Positions 19,091 through 47,578 of a DNA stretch of 64,000 nt are shown here, piece after piece (the first letter of the stretch is position 1; each line of letters opens with the position of its first letter). The stretch spans positions 5,440 through 69,439 of the forward strand of contig JBDRCT010000003.1 of the NCBI GenBank assembly GCA_043821445.1. Direction: 5' to 3'. This stretch comes from Candidatus Omnitrophota bacterium (GTDB lineage Bacteria > Omnitrophota > Omnitrophia > Omnitrophales > Aquincolibacteriaceae). Made by a program: the position numbers and the translations under genes. The notes under the pieces were generated by a model, which worked only from the letters and a program-made list of their open reading frames with translations, was not told the origin of the DNA and did not search any database.

Positions 19091-19132
19091 TCATTACACA
19101 CCGGGTCTGGCATGCCAGACCCGGTGTGTAAT
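19091..19132. repeat. 42-bp perfect palindrome (19-bp GC-rich stem, 4-nt loop) between lysS 3' end and the lolC-like start
   Basis: cattacacaccgggtctgg catg ccagacccggtgtgtaatg is exactly self-complementary. No U-tract follows on either strand. Confidence 0.8.
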
Positions 19133-19137
19133 GGGTA

Positions 19138-20529: not shown

Positions 20530-20672
20530 TTAGACTTATCCTTATTCCTTGATGCAGAATGATTTAAGACGATTTAAGACGTTATTATATGTTAGTTTCC
20601 AGACGGGGTCAATTGACGGATAACCTCTATTTACCTTGACCCTCTTTCTCCATTTGCTATGATTCCACTCCT

Positions 20673-21830
20673 ATGGAATTCATCGCAAATGCCACGTTAT
20701 TTCTCCTCCTTTTCATCCTGGCAGGCTGGATCTATCGCAGCTGGCGATCGTTATCCGAATTGAAGCAAGCACCCATCTTGAAGCTCACGGGGTTTGCATC
20801 CCGTCAAGGAAAAGTTTCGATCCTTATTCCCGTTAAGAATGAAGAGAAAAATATCAAGGATTGCGTCCAACCTCTTCTCGCCCAACTTCGTGAGGGCGAT
20901 GAGATCCTTGTCGTCAATAACTGTTCCGTGGACAGAACAGAAGCGATCCTTAAGAAGCTGGGGGCCATTGAGATCCGATCCGAAGATCTAGCTGGAAATT
21001 CACGCGCAAAGTTCAAATACCTTAACACCCCCTCCACTCCAGGGGGATGGACGGGCAAGAATTTCGCCCTTTACCTCGGGATCGAACATGCGGCAGGCGA
21101 CTGGTTGCTTTTCACTGACGCGGATACTTGCCACGAACCCGGGAGCCTCAACGCCACCCTTTCCTTTGCAGAAGAACGGAAGCTCGACCTCTTAACACTC
21201 CTGCCTCGTTGCCTCGCCCACGGCTTTTGGGAAGAGGTGATCCAACCCTGCGCAATGGGCTACATGGGACTTTGGTTCCCCGTCCAAAAGATCAATGATC
21301 CAAGATCCAAGGTTTATTTCGGGAATGGACAATACTTGCTCGTACGTGCGGAACATCACCGGAAGATCGGCGGACACGAGGGCGTAAAGGAAGCCTTTCT
21401 TGAAGACTTTGCGTTGATGAAAAAGACAAAAGAAACGGGAGCCCGCGGGATGTGCGCTTTCGGAATGGAGATCTACGGCACAAGAATGTATGAATCGCTT
21501 GACGCAATCTGGCGAGGCTGGCGCCGGATCTTCCTTCACGCATTCGAACAAAAACCGGAACTGATCTTGAAATACGGCCTGAGCGTTTTTTTCTTTTCAG
21601 TTTTCCCTTTTATAGCGCTCGTCATACTCCCTAGATCTTTCTCCGCCTCTCTGCTTCTTTGCGTCTTGATCCTGGGCATAACTCTCGCGACCGCCTTCAA
21701 GGCCTACGCCATCGTCAAAGCTAGAAGGCGTTATGCCTTCCTACATCCACTCGCGGCACTGGTCTTCACGGCCATTCTCCTCGACGCCTTTCAAATGGCC
21801 CTTCTCAAACGCCAAACCCACTGGCGTTAA
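20673..21830 (+). CDS. family 2 glycosyltransferase, polytopic membrane protein
   Basis: 385 aa. N-terminal TM, GT-A domain (ILIPVKNEEKNI...VVNNCSVDRTEAI, TDADT DxD-like), three or four C-terminal TM helices. The only plus-strand gene; divergent from lysS. Confidence 0.75.
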   Translation: MEFIANATLFLLLFILAGWIYRSWRSLSELKQAPILKLTGFASRQGKVSILIPVKNEEKNIKDCVQPLLAQLREGDEILVVNNCSVDRTEAILKKLGAIEIRSEDLAGNSRAKFKYLNTPSTPGGWTGKNFALYLGIEHAAGDWLLFTDADTCHEPGSLNATLSFAEERKLDLLTLLPRCLAHGFWEEVIQPCAMGYMGLWFPVQKINDPRSKVYFGNGQYLLVRAEHHRKIGGHEGVKEAFLEDFALMKKTKETGARGMCAFGMEIYGTRMYESLDAIWRGWRRIFLHAFEQKPELILKYGLSVFFFSVFPFIALVILPRSFSASLLLCVLILGITLATAFKAYAIVKARRRYAFLHPLAALVFTAILLDAFQMALLKRQTHWR

Positions 21831-24657: not shown

Positions 24658-25937
24658 TTTTTAAATACCAGGGACGCGTTTTGGCCGCCCAATCCGAATG
24701 TGTTCAGAACGGCCACGTTGACTTGGCAAGATTTCGCTTTATCCTTGACGAATGGCAATGAACATTCCGGATCCGGGCTCTCAAGATTGACGACCGGAGG
24801 CACCTGTCCCTTTTTCGTGGTCATGGCCGCAACCACCGCCTCCACGCTCCCGGTTCCATAAACCAGATTCCCGGTCACGGGTTTTACCGCGGTGACGTGA
24901 AGCTTTTTGAAAGTGGAGGCATAAAAAGAATGGACTGCGAGCGACTCCTGGACGTCCTCCTGCGGAATGCCGCTCCCGTTCGCCACAAGGACATCAACAT
25001 CCGCGGGTTCGAGCGCGGCATCTTCGAGGGCCCGGCGGATCGCCACGCGCTTTCCCGTAAAGTCATCCGAATCGCGCGGATCATAATTAAAATCCGAGGA
25101 GGATCCATACCCTACGATTTCAGCATAGATCGATGCCCCACGCTTTTTCGCACTTTCAAGAGATTCCAAGACCAAGATCCCCGCACCTTCTCCCAGCACG
25201 ATCCCGTCGTGTTTTTTGTCAAAAGGACAATAAGCTTTTTCAGGCAGCTCTTCGCGTGTCGAAAGAAGACCGAGAAGCTGGAAACGCGAGATCCCCATTG
25301 CGTTAAGCTTAGAGTCCGTGCCGCCCGCAAGCATGATGTCCGCATCCCCGCGCTCGACCACGCGGTACGCTTCTCCGATCGCTTGCGTGCCCGCGGCCGA
25401 AGACGTCGTGATGGTATTGTTCGGCCCCCGGAGCTGATTCGCAACGGAGATATGACAGGCCGGCATATTCGGGAGATATTTCAGGAACCAGAGAGGAAAA
25501 AGCGAGCGGATGCCATCTTGCCCGAACTTGGTCATGGAGAAATGTCCGTTCTCATCCAGACCATTCCTGAAGCCCACCCCAATTTCGTCGAGGTCGTTAT
25601 TGATGACCCCGGTCCCCAGCGTCACACCGATACGTGTGGGATCATAATGTTCCGGAGAAAGCTTGGCGTCTTTAAGCGCGAGGCGGCTTGCGGCAACGGC
25701 CATTTGGATCTCGCGGGACATCAGCTTGATGGATTTGCGGTTCTCGATGAATTCTTTCGGTTCGAACCCGGACAACATCCCAGCATATTTGAAAGAGGGA
25801 CAATGGAGCCTAAGAGGATCGGAGCTCTGGATCGCGGAACGCCCGTGAAGCGCAGCATCCCAGTAAGGTTCCCAGCCGTTCCCGCACGGCGTGATAACCC
25901 CGAAACCAGTGATCACGACACGGCGTTTTTTAGTCAT
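24651..25937 (-). CDS. KS-like chain-length-factor (CLF/KS-beta) partner
   Basis: KS fold. Active-site Cys replaced (TTSSAAGTQAIGEA) and both catalytic His replaced (LVANGSGIP; GNLVYGTGS). Start taken at MTKKRRVV (ATG 25937). 7-nt overlap with the KS-alpha gene. Confidence 0.8.
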   Translation of the reverse strand: MTKKRRVVITGFGVITPCGNGWEPYWDAALHGRSAIQSSDPLRLHCPSFKYAGMLSGFEPKEFIENRKSIKLMSREIQMAVAASRLALKDAKLSPEHYDPTRIGVTLGTGVINNDLDEIGVGFRNGLDENGHFSMTKFGQDGIRSLFPLWFLKYLPNMPACHISVANQLRGPNNTITTSSAAGTQAIGEAYRVVERGDADIMLAGGTDSKLNAMGISRFQLLGLLSTREELPEKAYCPFDKKHDGIVLGEGAGILVLESLESAKKRGASIYAEIVGYGSSSDFNYDPRDSDDFTGKRVAIRRALEDAALEPADVDVLVANGSGIPQEDVQESLAVHSFYASTFKKLHVTAVKPVTGNLVYGTGSVEAVVAAMTTKKGQVPPVVNLESPDPECSLPFVKDKAKSCQVNVAVLNTFGLGGQNASLVFKKC

Positions 25938-26016
25938 GATTACCTGCGCATTGTTTGATCCAGGACAACCATGACTGTCTGAGTCGCCCTGCATAAAGAA
26001 AAAAAAGACTTGGACA

Positions 26017-26532
26017 TCATGACGGTTGGTCGCCCTGTGTTATGGGCCGTCCCTCGATCTTGTTTTGAAGGATGGACGAGCCTCGCTCCGCTTCGCGAGC
26101 GGGTGGAAGGATCTTCTTGCGGATATTAAAATAATCCATGAAAGCCTCGTGAAATGTGATGGACTTCGTCTGCTCCGCGGAAAGACCGCTCACCGCCATG
26201 AGCAAAAGTTTCGCTCGTGCCACCAATCCTTCAGCACATGTGATCGTCGCTTCCAACCAGCCGCCTTCGGCCCCAAGACTTTCGGACCAAGCCTCGATCT
26301 GAAGGGGGGTGCCGGACTTCGGAATCTTTGTGATGGTCGCGTTTTCGATCTTTGCAAAAATGAGATCTTTTTGGTAATCACTTTCCGCACCGACCAAAAG
26401 ACCGCCGGTCTGCGCCATCATCTCAATAAAGAGAACTTCCGAACTATAGGGAGCTCGGGGGACTTTGGCGAAAGCAACGGCCTTTTCCCCTTTGCGGATC
26501 GAATAGACTTCTTCAAGAAGAAGCCAACGCAT
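26017..26532 (-). CDS. hotdog-fold (FabA/FabZ-like) dehydratase
   Basis: 171 aa. Single hotdog domain with the FIEMMAQTGGLLVG core. Embedded between the CLF and PPTase genes. Confidence 0.55.
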   Translation of the reverse strand: MRWLLLEEVYSIRKGEKAVAFAKVPRAPYSSEVLFIEMMAQTGGLLVGAESDYQKDLIFAKIENATITKIPKSGTPLQIEAWSESLGAEGGWLEATITCAEGLVARAKLLLMAVSGLSAEQTKSITFHEAFMDYFNIRKKILPPAREAERGSSILQNKIEGRPITQGDQPS

Positions 26533-27873: not shown

Positions 27874-28503
27874 TTATCCGTTACTCTCTTTTTCCAAAAC
27901 ATAGATCCCGTTCAAAATTCGGAATCCCGAAAGCCAAGTATAAAAACTTTTAAAAGAACTGACTTCAAAACCAGCCGCTTTAAAAAACTCCTGCCACTCG
28001 CCATCCTTACGAAACTGATGCGGATGTGCCATGAATTCCACATTCAAAAGCCTGTCACGGCAAATGGTCCAGAACCGGCCGGCTGCATGATGATAAAGGT
28101 CCTCTACGACCACGACCTTCTGGCGCGTCACTCGCCGCACTTCTTTGAAAAGCGCCTGCGGATCCTGCGCGTGATGAAGCATGGTCATGAGAATCGTCAC
28201 ATTAAAACTTTGATCCGGGAACGGGATCTTGACGCCATCATACAGCACCACCGGCGCCTTCCGATAACCGGGGCTTACAACATCCAGAACCAGATGCTCA
28301 TGCCCCCGCGTCTTGAGAGGCCCGGCATAAAAACCCCAACCGCCGCCTAGATCCAGAATCCGGCTTTTCCGAGGGATCCGATTTTCAAAAAGCTGGACGA
28401 TCTTTTCTGCCCGGGTCTCAAGAGCGCTATGAGCGAAATACCTGACAATTCCGTCCAGCACCCGGCGCTGAAAGACCTGCAGATGATTCTTAATGATGTT
28501 CAC
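27874..28503 (-). CDS. class I SAM-dependent methyltransferase
   Basis: 209 aa. Motif I ILDLGGGWGFYAGPL. First gene of the lipid operon. Confidence 0.75.
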   Translation of the reverse strand: MNIIKNHLQVFQRRVLDGIVRYFAHSALETRAEKIVQLFENRIPRKSRILDLGGGWGFYAGPLKTRGHEHLVLDVVSPGYRKAPVVLYDGVKIPFPDQSFNVTILMTMLHHAQDPQALFKEVRRVTRQKVVVVEDLYHHAAGRFWTICRDRLLNVEFMAHPHQFRKDGEWQEFFKAAGFEVSSFKSFYTWLSGFRILNGIYVLEKESNG

Positions 28504-28554
28504 AATCTCGCTTGCAATAGTTTTTGAGCGTGAAATTATAGCATAGGCCTGTTT

Positions 28555-28674
28555 CCGCCCAAACTTTTATTTCTTTTCCATAAAGGTAGTCTGGACGGCC
28601 CCAATCTCAGCTAGGCTTCGATTGATAGGTATTGGGACCGCCCAAACTTTTATTTCTTTTCCATAAAGGTAGTC
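28555..28674. repeat. duplicated 37-bp element (two identical copies, 83-bp pitch) plus a second duplicated 17-nt motif in the leader of the lipid operon
   Basis: ccgcccaaacttttatttcttttccataaaggtagtc occurs at 28555-28591 and 28638-28674. tggacggccccaatct occurs at 28592-28607 and 28756-28771. A short palindrome ccctca/tgaggg lies at ~28730-28750. Confidence 0.75.
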
Positions 28675-28795
28675 GGCCCTGACTTTCCACTAGCTTTTTT
28701 GATGAGGAAGCCAGGACAGTCCCAACCAACCCTCAAATTAACCTGAGGGTCGGGGCTGGACGGCCCCAATCTTAGCGACGCTTCGCCCCGCTTCT

Positions 28796-29290
28796 TTATC
28801 GGGTAGAAGATCGGGGAAAAAGGTCCGTCTTGAGACAAGTCACATGATCGATAAAAAGAACGCCCTCCAGATGATCGACCTCATGCTCCACGCAAATCGC
28901 TTCAATCCCGGTGCTGATCTTTTCCTGGAATTCGCCGCGTTCGTTCTGCCAGCGAAAGCGGACCCACTTATGACGCTTCAGGAACGCCGTGTAATCCGGA
29001 AAGCTCATACAACCCTCCTTGCGCGCTTCCGGCTCTTTTTTTTCAAGGATCACGGGATTGACAAGGACGAGACGTTTTGTCCTCGGATCGCGTTTCGAAA
29101 CATCCACGATCGCAACGGCCTTCGCAACCCCGATCTGTGGCGCGGCAATCCCTATCCCGTGCGGTTGGCTTTTCATGGCACGAACCAAAGCAGCCACAAG
29201 CTTCAAGAGTGAACGGTCGAATACTGTGACCGCTTGTGTTTTTTTTCTGAGGATAGGATCGGGAAAAGTCCGGAGAAGAATGGGTTTCAT
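28796..29290 (-). CDS. def: peptide deformylase
   Basis: 164 aa. GIGIAAPQIG, EGCMSFP and HEVDHLEG motifs. Confidence 0.95.
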   Translation of the reverse strand: MKPILLRTFPDPILRKKTQAVTVFDRSLLKLVAALVRAMKSQPHGIGIAAPQIGVAKAVAIVDVSKRDPRTKRLVLVNPVILEKKEPEARKEGCMSFPDYTAFLKRHKWVRFRWQNERGEFQEKISTGIEAICVEHEVDHLEGVLFIDHVTCLKTDLFPRSSTR

Positions 29291-44117: not shown

Positions 44118-45812
44118 TCACTCCCGGCTTGCAACGCGAAGCACTTCCTCGAGCGTGGTCACCCCGGATTTAAAGAGTCCCAGTGCGTTCTCGAAGAGTG
44201 TCTCCATTCCCTTTTCAACGGCAAGCTGATGAATAACATTACTCGATTTTTTCCGGATTACAAGCTCCCGGATGTCCGGGTCCACAAGCAGCACTTCACT
44301 TGCGCCGGTCCTGCCAAAATATCCCGTCATGTTGCACTTGATACAACCCTTTCCCGTGAACGGGGCGATCCTGTCCAATTCCGACTTGGAAAATTTACAG
44401 CGAAACAGGACTTCCGCGGGTATGACGGCCGGGGCCCTGCAATTCGGGCAGATCTTCCTGAGTAGACGCTGGGCGCCAACGCATACGACCGACGAGGCGA
44501 TCAAAAAAGGCTCCACTCCCATATCGATAAGACGTGTCATCGCACCGGCCGCGCTATTCGTATGAAGTGTGCTGAACACTAGGTGCCCGGTCAAGGCGGC
44601 TTTTACCGCAATATCGGCAGTCTCCGAATCGCGGATCTCTCCCACCAGTACAATGTCCGGACTTTGGCGCAAGAGAGCGCGTAAACCGTTCGCGAACGTA
44701 AGCCCGATCTCCGGTTGCACCTGCGTCTGCGTGATCCCTTCAACCTGATATTCGACAGGATCCTCTACGGTCATTAAATTCTTTTGCGGCGTGTTCAGAG
44801 AGTTAAGGATCGAATATAGAGTGGTGGATTTCCCACTGCCCGTCGGCCCGGTGATCAGGATCATCCCATAAGGCTTTTTGACCGCCTCAGCAAGAGCACG
44901 CGTCGGTTTTTCCGTAAAACCAAGCTTGTCAAGCCCCGTCCTGATCCCGCTCCGGTCCAGAACGCGCAACACCATTTTCTCGCCGAAATAGGTTGGCAAC
45001 ACGGAAACACGAAAATCGATCTGCCGGTCCTTGAGTAATAACCGGAACCGCCCGTCCTGGGGTAAACGTTTTTCAGTAATATCCAAAAGAGAAATGATCT
45101 TCGCCCGCGCCACGAGAGCGGGATAAAGCTCCAAGGAATGAGAAAACGACTCTTTCAAAACCCCGTCGACACGGTACCGAATACGGAATTCTTTTTCATA
45201 AGGCTCGAAATGGATGTCGGACGCGCGCGATTTGAGGGCTTTTTCGAGAATGAAGTTGACCATCTTGATGACGGGTGCATCATCGACTCCGGCCTGCACG
45301 ACAGACGGCAACTCCGTTTCATTCTCTCTGACAAGCTCCAGGCTGTCTGCGTCTTTTTCGGTAATGAACTCAGAAAAGTTTTTGCTTTCCGCGTAATGGT
45401 CGCTGATGGCAGCGGCGATCCGTGCAGGCGTGACCAATACCGGACTCACATCGCATCCCGTCAGATGCTTGATATCATCGAAAACCCTCAGTTGGAATGG
45501 ATCGCTTGTGGCCACGGTCACAAGTTTCCCGACGCGTCCTACCGGAAAAACATGATGCAGCTCAATGAATTTCCGTGAAAACATCCTCAGGACTTCTAGA
45601 TCGAACTGCATTCCGTGGAGATTCAAGGTGGGGATCTCAAGTTGAGCGCTCAAAAAATCCATGACCTCTTCTTCCAACAGGATCTTTTCTGAGAGGATAA
45701 TTTTCAAAATGCTTTCATTGTGTTTCTGTGCCGTCTGTTCCAAACGGTCACACTCCCCGTCGGAAAGCCCCATTGTTTTCACCCATGCTCGAACGATTTG
45801 CTTGTCGATCAT
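44118..45812 (-). CDS. pilB: type IV pilus assembly ATPase PilB / GspE family
   Basis: 564 aa. N-terminal T2SSE_N domain. Walker A ITGPTGSGKSTT. Tetracysteine CPNC...CIKC. Confidence 0.9.
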   Translation of the reverse strand: MIDKQIVRAWVKTMGLSDGECDRLEQTAQKHNESILKIILSEKILLEEEVMDFLSAQLEIPTLNLHGMQFDLEVLRMFSRKFIELHHVFPVGRVGKLVTVATSDPFQLRVFDDIKHLTGCDVSPVLVTPARIAAAISDHYAESKNFSEFITEKDADSLELVRENETELPSVVQAGVDDAPVIKMVNFILEKALKSRASDIHFEPYEKEFRIRYRVDGVLKESFSHSLELYPALVARAKIISLLDITEKRLPQDGRFRLLLKDRQIDFRVSVLPTYFGEKMVLRVLDRSGIRTGLDKLGFTEKPTRALAEAVKKPYGMILITGPTGSGKSTTLYSILNSLNTPQKNLMTVEDPVEYQVEGITQTQVQPEIGLTFANGLRALLRQSPDIVLVGEIRDSETADIAVKAALTGHLVFSTLHTNSAAGAMTRLIDMGVEPFLIASSVVCVGAQRLLRKICPNCRAPAVIPAEVLFRCKFSKSELDRIAPFTGKGCIKCNMTGYFGRTGASEVLLVDPDIRELVIRKKSSNVIHQLAVEKGMETLFENALGLFKSGVTTLEEVLRVASRE

Positions 45813-47578
45813 GGGCCGCCCCCTCTGGGTGGTAACCCAGCATCCGCTATCGTAACGCGGAAAACCTCATCGAGCGATGTTTCGCCCGTTAGGGCCTTTT
45901 GGACCGCAGATTCGCGCAGCGTGTTCATTCCGTGTTCTCGGGCTCTGGCCTTGATCGCATCCGCGGACGCACCTTGCATGATCAGCTCCAAGATATCCGG
46001 CTTCATTTCCAGGATCTCGGTGATCACGCTCCGGCCCTGATATCCCAGTTGGCGGCACTGCGAACAGCCTTTGGCTTTCCAGAGCTGGACCTTCTTTTTC
46101 GGATCCAGGTTCAGGAACTTATACATATCCGGTTCTAGATCGTATGCGAAGCGGCAACGCGGGCAGAGGCGGCGCACCAAACGCTGGGCCGAGATCATCA
46201 GCACCGTCGACGCAATCAGGAACGGCTCTAGTCCCAAATTCGCCATGCGGGTCACAGAACTCACCGCATCGTTGGTGTGAAGCGTGCTCAAAACGAGATG
46301 ACCCGTAAGCGCGGCCTTGACGGCGATATCGAGCGTTTCCGCATCGCGGATCTCCCCGATCAAGATAATGTCAGGATCTTGACGCAGGATCGAACGGAGA
46401 GCCGCGGGAAACGTCAACCCAATGGATTCGCGAACATTGACCTGATTGATACCGGCTATCTGATATTCCACAGGATCCTCGACGGTCGTGATATTGACCT
46501 GTGGAGAATCCAAATACTTAAGGACCGAATAAAGTGTGGTCGTCTTCCCGCTCCCGGTCGGCCCGGTCACGAGGATCATCCCATGCGGCTTCTTGGCGGA
46601 AGTCCGGATCACCTCCTGCTCTGATGCCGTAAACCCGAGTTTTTGAATGTCATGAGACTGTGCCCCGGTATCCAAAATGCGTAAGCAAACTTTTTCGCCG
46701 AAGCTGGAAGGCAATATGGAAACGCGCATGTCCACTTCCCGGCCCTGAGTTCTCACTTTAAAACGGCCATCCTGAGGCACTCGATGCTCCGCAATATTGA
46801 GCTGACTCATGATCTTGACGCGGGAAACAATGGCATCGCCAAAACTTTTTTGGGGTCTTACGATCTCTTCGAGAATACCGTCAATGCGCATGCGGATCCG
46901 GACAAAACCTTCCCAGGGTTCAATGAAAATATCGCTCGCACGGCGACGCACCCCCTCCACGAGCGCCATGTTGACAAGTTTCACGACTGGGGCCTGGTTC
47001 GCCTGCTCCATGAGGTCCGAGGCCTGCTGCTGCTTATCGAAGATCGCTTCGCTTTCGACCATATGGGCAAGAGAGATGAGGTCTTCGGTGCCTTCATCCG
47101 GAACGGGTTCTTCCAAGACAGCGGTCTCTCCCTGATAGGATTTCTGTATGTATTCCTTGAGCTGGGAATATTCCGCCACCGAGACCCGGATACGCTTTCC
47201 GGTCAAGGAGTGAAGTTCATCCAAAGTCTTTAGATTGGTCGGATTCGCAACCGCGACCGTCAACGTATTTTCATAGAGAACGATCGGGAGACACACATAG
47301 GCCTCCGCGATCTTCCGGGGAATGAGTTCCAGGACTTCTTTGTGAATGATAAGCATTTTGAGACTGACGATACGATAGCCGTACTCTTTACAAAGAATGT
47401 CCACGAGTTTTTTTTCGTCGCATTTTCCTTTCTGAAGAAGAATGTCCAGAAAATGGAGCTTTTTCGAGCTCTTGGCCTGCTCCTGGATCGCCTGCTGAAG
47501 TTCCCCTGAATTGACGACCCCGAACCGAAGAAGGGCTTCTTTCAGGTCCGGCAATGAACTTCGCTTGGGGTCCGTCAT
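45809..47578 (-). CDS. second GspE/PilB-family secretion ATPase (paralogue)
   Basis: 589 aa. N-terminal T2SSE_N-like domain. Walker A VTGPTGSGKTTT. Tetracysteine CPRCR...CSQCR. 4-nt overlap with pilB. Confidence 0.85.
   Translation of the reverse strand: MTDPKRSSLPDLKEALLRFGVVNSGELQQAIQEQAKSSKKLHFLDILLQKGKCDEKKLVDILCKEYGYRIVSLKMLIIHKEVLELIPRKIAEAYVCLPIVLYENTLTVAVANPTNLKTLDELHSLTGKRIRVSVAEYSQLKEYIQKSYQGETAVLEEPVPDEGTEDLISLAHMVESEAIFDKQQQASDLMEQANQAPVVKLVNMALVEGVRRRASDIFIEPWEGFVRIRMRIDGILEEIVRPQKSFGDAIVSRVKIMSQLNIAEHRVPQDGRFKVRTQGREVDMRVSILPSSFGEKVCLRILDTGAQSHDIQKLGFTASEQEVIRTSAKKPHGMILVTGPTGSGKTTTLYSVLKYLDSPQVNITTVEDPVEYQIAGINQVNVRESIGLTFPAALRSILRQDPDIILIGEIRDAETLDIAVKAALTGHLVLSTLHTNDAVSSVTRMANLGLEPFLIASTVLMISAQRLVRRLCPRCRFAYDLEPDMYKFLNLDPKKKVQLWKAKGCSQCRQLGYQGRSVITEILEMKPDILELIMQGASADAIKARAREHGMNTLRESAVQKALTGETSLDEVFRVTIADAGLPPRGGGP

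Follow-up and report, generated by a model that had tools for sequence, protein, structure and literature searches.

The stretch of DNA analyzed here (the window) is 64 kb long, and homologs of a methyltransferase (MT) that it encodes assign its host to Candidatus Omnitrophota, with the closest protein being 89% identical. We focused our attention on the 292-nt spacer between def and MT, which the initial annotation had described as the repeat-bearing leader of a lipid operon, situated 3′ of def and directly 5′ of the MT start codon. This position between the two genes is correct, and all genes around the spacer are encoded on the minus strand:

28796-29290, minus strand, def
27874-28503, minus strand, class I SAM methyltransferase (MT), with a GTG start

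Genes for a FabA/ApeI-like dehydratase, an acyl carrier protein, a phosphopantetheinyl transferase, and a hypothetical protein lie 3′ of MT, after which the lipid operon continues with two ketoacyl synthases (KAS) and an NAD_binding_4 reductase. We found no tRNA or tmRNA relic, as an attachment site might leave, in the 64-kb window. A coding region across the repeats was considered and rejected, because the extensions annotated in relatives lie in differing frames and the window has stop codons. Several MT homolog entries (P0008, P0059, P0003, P0012, and others) carry spurious N-terminal extensions of 20-100 residues, which arise because gene callers read through the open promoter/repeat region in two different frames.

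The repeats themselves were readily recovered. The two perfect copies of a 37-mer, CCGCCCAAACTTTTATTTCTTTTCCATAAAGGTAGTC, lie at a spacing of 83 nt (28555-28591 and 28638-28674) and are the only two in the window; no third copy was found in the 64 kb with up to three mismatches, and shuffled sequences gave a 37-mer match in 0/100 cases. The tandem duplication is thus genuine and specific to this locus. The second repeated motif, TGGACGGCCCCAATCT, likewise occurs exactly twice (28592-28607 and 28757-28772), and the similarity around it reaches 30 nt at 90% identity, between a box that we name B (28591-28620) and a box B′ (28756-28785). The long inverted repeat around the first pair is real and longer than initially reported: its arms (28589-28605 / 28631-28647) are 17 nt each, with 14 Watson-Crick pairs and 3 positions that are G.U on the minus strand. 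The short palindrome ccctca/tgaggg is also present (28726-28735 / 28744-28753). These elements, together with a 17-nt segment (x) that lies between the 37-mer copies, are as follows:

28555-28591, minus strand, proximal 37-mer, a putative upstream promoter half spanning about -63 to -27; the same bases form the loop and 3′ arm of a hairpin, H1
28638-28674, minus strand, distal 37-mer, a putative second copy of the promoter half, not followed by a -10 at a workable distance
28591-28620, minus strand, B box and flank (cgaagcctagctgagATTGGGGCCGTCCAG), the 5′ arm of H1 and 3′ arm of a 17-bp hairpin
28756-28785, minus strand, B′ box, 90% identical to B and, by its def-side flank, orthologous to the single B of relative L001
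28621-28637, minus strand, x (TCCCAATACCTATCAAT), between the 37-mer copies, a candidate relic of the leader of an SDR gene
28589-28647, minus strand (the operon-sense strand), the 17-bp hairpin, in which GTTTGGGCGGTCCCAAT pairs with ATTGGGGCCGTCCAGAC

The B box is kept beside the A tract in relatives, and neither x nor B occurs elsewhere in the window. Tandem Repeats Finder reported nothing for the spacer, because the second unit retains only 37 of the 83 nt. Two further repeats were seen elsewhere in the window. A perfect 42-nt palindrome with 21-nt arms and no spacer (CATTACACACCGGGTCTGGCA / TGCCAGACCCGGTGTGTAATG) sits at 19092-19133, flanked by genes for an FtsX-type permease and a class II aminoacyl-tRNA synthetase, and a 154-nt direct repeat of 75% identity, with copies 1715 nt apart (44727-44880 and 46442-46595), probably reflects paralogous genes.

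A conserved promoter-like sequence lies between all of these repeats and the MT start codon. An alignment of 30 loci anchored on the -10 revealed that the -35 position is occupied by a conserved TTGGG preceded by a conserved A-run, and the corresponding elements of the window are:

28543-28535, minus strand, extended -10 TGCTATAAT, conserved before the MT start
28557-28562, minus strand, -35-like TTGGGC, 16 nt upstream of TATAAT
28563-28579, minus strand, A-rich UP-like tract that precedes TTGGGC

In 30/34 Omnitrophota loci, TGCTATAAT is found 34-47 nt 5′ of the MT start, invariant or with one mismatch, and it keeps this position whether the upstream neighbor is def, a divergent SDR gene, or a gene for a 2083-aa protein. 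As in an extended -10, TGn stands directly 5′ of a TATAAT-like hexamer at 28543-28535, and this is the only occurrence of TGNTATAAT in the window. The minus-strand end of the region reads ...ATTGGGGCCGTCCAG ACTACCTTTATGGAAAAGAAATAAAAGTTTGGGCGG AAACAGGCCTA TGCTATAAT ttcacgctcaaaaactattgcaagcgagatt GTG. We infer from this arrangement that transcription of the operon starts near 28528, leaving a 5′ UTR of ~25 nt; the fixed 34-47-nt distance from TGCTATAAT to the MT start codon is consistent with such a start. We likewise infer that the proximal 37-mer is promoter DNA, providing TGCTATAAT with its UP-like A-rich tract and its -35-like hexamer, TTGGGC. A generic promoter scan reported no promoter in this region, because TTGGGC matches TTGACA at only 3/6 positions; the TTG is conserved in relatives.

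The likeness to Escherichia coli sigma-70 promoters with an extended -10 and an UP element includes the TGnTATAAT sequence, a weak -35-like hexamer separated from it by 16 nt, a stretch rich in A around -40 to -55, and a short fixed distance to the start codon across 30 genomes. Unlike in those promoters, the UP/-35 half is here duplicated 83 nt upstream with no second -10, the -35 region doubles as the 3′ arm of a conserved hairpin, and the start in this uncultivated phylum is a predicted one. Because transcription would reach the conserved TGCTATAAT only after passing all of the repeats, these probably lie upstream of the transcription start and outside the transcript leader, and the proposal that they form part of a leader is likely mistaken. 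We also rejected a second promoter within the distal unit: no -10-like hexamer follows the distal TTGGGC at 16-18 nt, with TATCAA coming only 12 nt after it, and the promoter scan found none. Readings of the repeats as IHF-, sigma-54-, ECF-, or LysR-type sites were dropped, as no matches were apparent by eye.

The number of repeat units varies among relatives. The def-MT spacer measures 127 nt in L001, 210 nt in L011, and 292 nt in the window, and relatives whose MT is 84-89% identical carry one, two, or three units. A single B-A-promoter unit occurs in L001, L007, L016, and L002/L014, and the 25-nt core of the proximal 37-mer is present as a single copy at the same position in L001, L007, L016, L002, and L026; the distal 37-mer copy is absent from L001, L007, and L016. 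Other relatives (L009/L011, L012, L021/L056, and L051-54) have a second A copy, then the 17-nt x, and then B-A-promoter, and many have no B or x near the promoter. Removing 165 nt from the window (28591-28755, from B′ to B) leaves a spacer of 127 nt that aligns to L001 with no gap (109/127 identical), and removing the 83 nt between the 37-mers yields a translation that reproduces the N-terminal extension of P0003, an arrangement that we read from the protein translation only. Since these two deletions reproduce the relatives, the array appears to change by recombination between direct repeats.

The pattern of identity among the copies bears on their age. The window distal 37-mer matches the window proximal copy at 37/37 positions versus 28/37 for the L011 distal copy, and the L021 distal core matches its own proximal core at 21/25 positions versus 17/25 for the window. 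Copies from the same genome are more alike than orthologous copies, and the perfect identity of the 37-mers points to recent duplication or gene conversion. Counter to the explanation that we favor below, the distal 25-nt core and x are identical in the window and L011, with flanks that differ by ~8-12%, which could mean that the distal unit is under selection. L016, the closest relative in the genome collection, carries a relic of a second def 3′ end (gcttctatccgataa) ~60 nt past the real def stop (L016:2230-2400, 5′ of MT), and this relic shows that the spacer is prone to small duplications.

In L015, L019, L022, L024, L025, and L028, x directly adjoins the ATG of an SDR gene that is divergent from MT. 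Its reverse complement, ATTGA(A/T)AGGTATTGGGA, brings a Shine-Dalgarno-like AGG to the position immediately 5′ of the SDR ATG in these relatives, and the SDR-sense strand reads ...ATTGAAAGGTATTGGGACT ATG. The divergent SDR arrangement is found in the most distant relatives, and we take it to be ancestral for that reason. No SDR (adh_short/KR) gene is present in the 64-kb window; L002 carries one at 1980-2738. The def-side junction of the window array cuts a unit inside its second loop. In the window lineage, the SDR gene has given way to a block that comprises polyA polymerase, SNase, AsmA-like, ACT, and, at its end, def.

Read on the window plus strand, the 83-84-nt period corresponds to a cassette of two hairpins. 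The first, H1, is formed by CCGCCCAAAC / GTCTGGACGG around a T-rich loop, and the second, H2, by CCCCAAT / ATTGGGA around a loop that holds the AGG. This fold was predicted in 11/11 instances collected, with at least five different H1 stem sequences at the same position. Counted on an alignment that was fitted to the covariance model itself, 85.8% of cells were paired versus 73.3% in shuffles, with slid controls far lower, and there were 56 double-change cells versus 21.7 in shuffles, 0/500 of which scored as high. Matches to the covariance model, R1, suggest three units in the window:

28555-28638, plus strand, unit I, complete, with H1 at 28555-28564 / 28589-28598 and H2 at 28600-28605 / 28631-28636
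28642-28717, plus strand, unit II, degenerate except for the H1 5′ arm and loop that constitute the distal 37-mer
28722-28805, plus strand, unit III, truncated: the palindrome (28726-28753), then B′, cut in the H2 loop at the def 3′ end

Unit I scored 95.7 bits (E = 2e-22) and is a member of the R1 training set, unit II scored 24.9 bits (E = 2e-4) and includes a B-like TTGGGACTGTCC at 28714-28725, and unit III gave a marginal 17.0 bits (E = 0.02). A local alignment of the intervening y segment alone (28675-28755) to one period was not significant (P = 0.14). The three-unit model rests on the R1 matches, which are driven in part by the 37-mer and B′, and on the deletion variants of the P0003 and L001 type.

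We considered whether the boxes might be operators, as the initial annotation had proposed for the duplicated copies. The 12-mer TTGGGRCYGYCC has four exact matches within 177 nt (28593-28769; three direct, one inverted) and none elsewhere in the 64 kb, compared with ~0.1 expected by chance on both strands of 64 kb. A dimeric or oligomeric pathway-specific regulator might bind these sites and control both the MT operon and the SDR and glycosyltransferase genes of relatives, with duplication adding sites; two of them can be read as palindromes (TTGGGCGGTCCCAA and TTGGGGCCGTCCAG), boxes similar to B recur in both orientations 5′ of three functionally linked genes, and B is centered ~70 nt upstream of the putative transcription start. 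The copies are related by duplication, however, so that their clustering is not independent evidence. The distance of B from the promoter also varies (-102 in some loci, -190 to -290 in others), with many relatives having no B near the promoter, and L001, L007, and L016, the closest relatives, do not have the distal sites, which are evidently dispensable there. Pfam scans of 19 neighboring proteins revealed no DNA-binding regulator domain, although a regulator may be encoded farther away, and arms that lie 27 nt apart with compensatory changes are a better fit for hairpins. The fourfold repetition of the 12-mer thus stands, and its service as a set of operators seems unlikely to us.

Folding behavior differs between the two strands. 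On the minus strand, for which the initial annotation had suggested a fold, the 292-nt spacer has a minimum free energy (MFE) of -104.2 kcal/mol (z = -3.5), versus -83.6 kcal/mol (z = -1.1) on the plus strand. The same bias holds for the 17-bp hairpin, which is also found in L011 (-32.2 kcal/mol, z = -5.8, on the minus strand and -19.5 kcal/mol, z = -0.8, on the plus strand), and for H1 (z = -3.6 and -0.6, respectively). The minus strand folds better because, read in the sense of the operon, all positions that depart from Watson-Crick pairing are G.U. Such strand-biased folding hints at an RNA role that our preferred explanation leaves unused: transcripts that read through from def may fold into the 17-bp hairpin and H1 and thereby terminate, insulate, or stabilize the def message, or alternative pairings may tune read-through. 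In the predicted structures, B pairs either with the distal A end and x or with the proximal A end, and the two pairings are mutually exclusive (centroid versus MFE). Several observations make an operon-sense RNA improbable nonetheless. First, on the operon-sense strand neither hairpin is followed by a U-tract. Second, one-unit relatives that also have def upstream do not possess the long hairpin. Third, the cassettes before SDR, a GT2 glycosyltransferase gene, and KAS are oriented opposite to the operon-sense strand. Finally, the wobble bias has a neutral account, in which one arm is held constant as the -35 region and the drifting arm is almost all C and A (one G), so that most transitions give G.U.

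The suggestion of a tandem riboswitch or attenuator was not borne out. There was no match to Rfam 15 at the gathering threshold in the whole window. At E ≤ 10, the region 28300-29000 gave only chance-level matches (best E-values 1.9 and 4.9), and the best sub-threshold families were wcaG (16.4 bits; threshold 42) and SNORD28 (18 bits; threshold 50). Tandem riboswitches and attenuators share with this array duplicated structured segments in which mutually exclusive helices are possible. The array differs in lying upstream of the -10 TGCTATAAT, and hence, to the extent that the predicted promoter is right, outside the transcribed 5′ leader; it also has no family match and no terminator U-tract, and its tandem layout is not conserved, orthologous operons having one, two, or three units.

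Copies of the same cassette were found before other start codons of the lipid cluster. At the SDR gene, L002, L012, L023, L027, and L029 have TATCTTATCGCCC directly followed by ATG, with no leader, and the cassette lies between the two in six other loci. At the GT2 glycosyltransferase gene of L009 and L055, the cassette sits between an extended -10-like TGTTATGAT and the ATG. The window ortholog (20673-21830) has no cassette in 20530-20672, and its -10 sits 9 nt from the ATG; this gene looks (nearly) leaderless (TTGACC-16 nt-TGCTATGAT-9 nt-ATG). Between the hypothetical gene and the first KAS (hyp-KAS), the spacer is filled in the window, L001/L055, L007, L016, and L017, and it is empty in L002 and L056, which have an ATGA stop/start overlap instead. 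The hyp-KAS cassette has an H1-like hairpin (GTCCAAGTC / GACTTGGAC) around a T-rich loop, followed by AAGGA and ATG; the window copy scores 18.4 bits against R1 and has a decayed stem. The true start of the window KAS is probably the ATG at ~25934 rather than 25994. The copies at the latter two genes are:

L009:1735-1905, plus strand, GT2 cassette, two units
L055:17769-17866, minus strand, GT2 cassette, one unit
25933-26017 of the window, minus strand, hyp-KAS cassette
L001:5403-5484, hyp-KAS cassette
L007:2491-2559, hyp-KAS cassette
L016:4903-4977, hyp-KAS cassette
L017:2481-2565, hyp-KAS cassette

Filled and empty sites thus occur at four places of the lipid cluster of relatives, including SDR, GT2, and hyp-KAS. 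Such a pattern might suggest a non-autonomous mobile element, similar to a miniature inverted-repeat transposable element (MITE), that transposes into start-codon regions, with the window array made of nested or tandem insertions. The unit is ~84 nt long and has no coding capacity, the filled sites at SDR, GT2, and hyp-KAS show short flank duplications, and the unit ends in short inverted sequences (TCCCAA ... TTGGGA). These ends, however, are only 6-7 nt long and also form the H2 stem, and the flank duplications at the three polymorphic sites (AT, CTAT, and ATGAC) vary in length from 2 to 5 bp, so that no target-site duplication of fixed length was found at SDR, GT2, or hyp-KAS. All copies seen fall within one lipid cluster: exact, mismatch, nhmmer, and covariance-model searches of the 64-kb window found none in its other ~50 kb, and those in 218 kb of relatives' loci were confined to this cluster, with none in the 10 kb upstream in L055 and L056. 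The promoter A tract and TTGGG box are ancestral and not inserted, and no transposase partner is known. Further copies of the 37-mer, expected of a dispersed element, were sought and none was found in the 64 kb; an exact search with its 25-mer core had no match in a 596-Gb reference genome collection. In a metagenome collection, a 22-mer core matched the orthologous L009 site and two unrelated AT-rich sequences, and nothing else. The miniature inverted-repeat idea survives insofar as a hairpin cassette occupies some sites and is absent from the corresponding sites of other relatives; a dispersed high-copy repeat is not seen in either 64 kb or 596 Gb, and transposition as a MITE-like element appears very unlikely.

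The closest counterparts of the cassette are probably the small palindromic repeats found between bacterial genes, ERIC and Correia elements among them. ERIC/IRU, REP/BIME, RUP, and the Correia elements of Neisseria are also short non-coding imperfect inverted repeats that fold into hairpins, occupy intergenic or intercistronic sites, and are polymorphic for presence or absence between related genomes. Correia elements carry promoter-like boxes at their ends, and one end of the cassette here would serve as the -35 region of its neighbor. Unlike ERIC, REP, RUP, and Correia elements, the cassette is very low in copy number and was seen in one gene cluster only, forms tandem arrays with an 83-nt period and no target duplication of fixed length, ends in sense orientation with a Shine-Dalgarno-like AGG before the start codon, and has no sequence similarity to any Rfam family. 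We regard it as a low-copy hairpin cassette family that was not previously described; a literature search on intergenic repeats of Omnitrophota or on MITEs that carry ribosome-binding sites found nothing relevant. Phase-variable promoter repeats are alike in that the number of upstream units varies in close relatives through recombination between direct repeats. The units here differ in being long (83 nt) and few (one to three) and in lying upstream of the -35 rather than within the spacer.

Our preferred explanation, to which we give a probability of about 60%, is that the 292-nt spacer is a polymorphic local tandem array, part promoter and part fossil leader, whose copies were recently duplicated or converted. 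About three units of the 83-84-nt two-hairpin cassette would have been amplified locally, immediately upstream of a sigma-70-type extended -10. The proximal 37-mer would work as promoter DNA for TGCTATAAT, and the distal 37-mer would be the same promoter half duplicated without its -10. The 17-nt x would be the fossil ribosome-binding leader of an ancestrally divergent SDR gene, later replaced by the def block through rearrangement. Recombination between direct repeats would then gain and lose units, giving the one, two, or three seen in close relatives. The identity of the 37-mers would reflect recent duplication or gene conversion and not a conserved paired regulatory architecture, and the distal units would most likely be dispensable passengers that at most modulate the promoter.

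A broader reading, which we hold tentatively and consider rather doubtful, is that the 84-nt unit is one member of a cassette family, so far undescribed, that carries two hairpins and a Shine-Dalgarno-like sequence, is restricted to one gene cluster, and offers an RNA-level handle for co-regulation. If so, cassettes would be gained and lost exactly between the transcription start (or the upstream stop codon) and the start codon, and each gain or loss would switch SDR, GT2, and KAS between leaderless or overlapping translation and translation from a structured leader. Co-regulation of the lipid/glycolipid cluster would act on RNA through the hairpins that its genes have in common, and the window array would combine the SDR leader fossil with a co-opted promoter part.

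A perfect repeat before an operon, however striking, can arise as a side effect of repeat-mediated duplication in a promoter region and need not be a paired regulatory device, a useful caution when uncultivated genomes are screened for repeats. The alignment of relatives gives a first comparative promoter footprint in Candidatus Omnitrophota, with an extended -10, a weak -35, and an A-tract, and a small hairpin cassette comes and goes before the start codons of one lipid gene cluster. If this cassette does function at the RNA level, it would offer a compact natural means of adding a structured, ribosome-binding leader to a gene.
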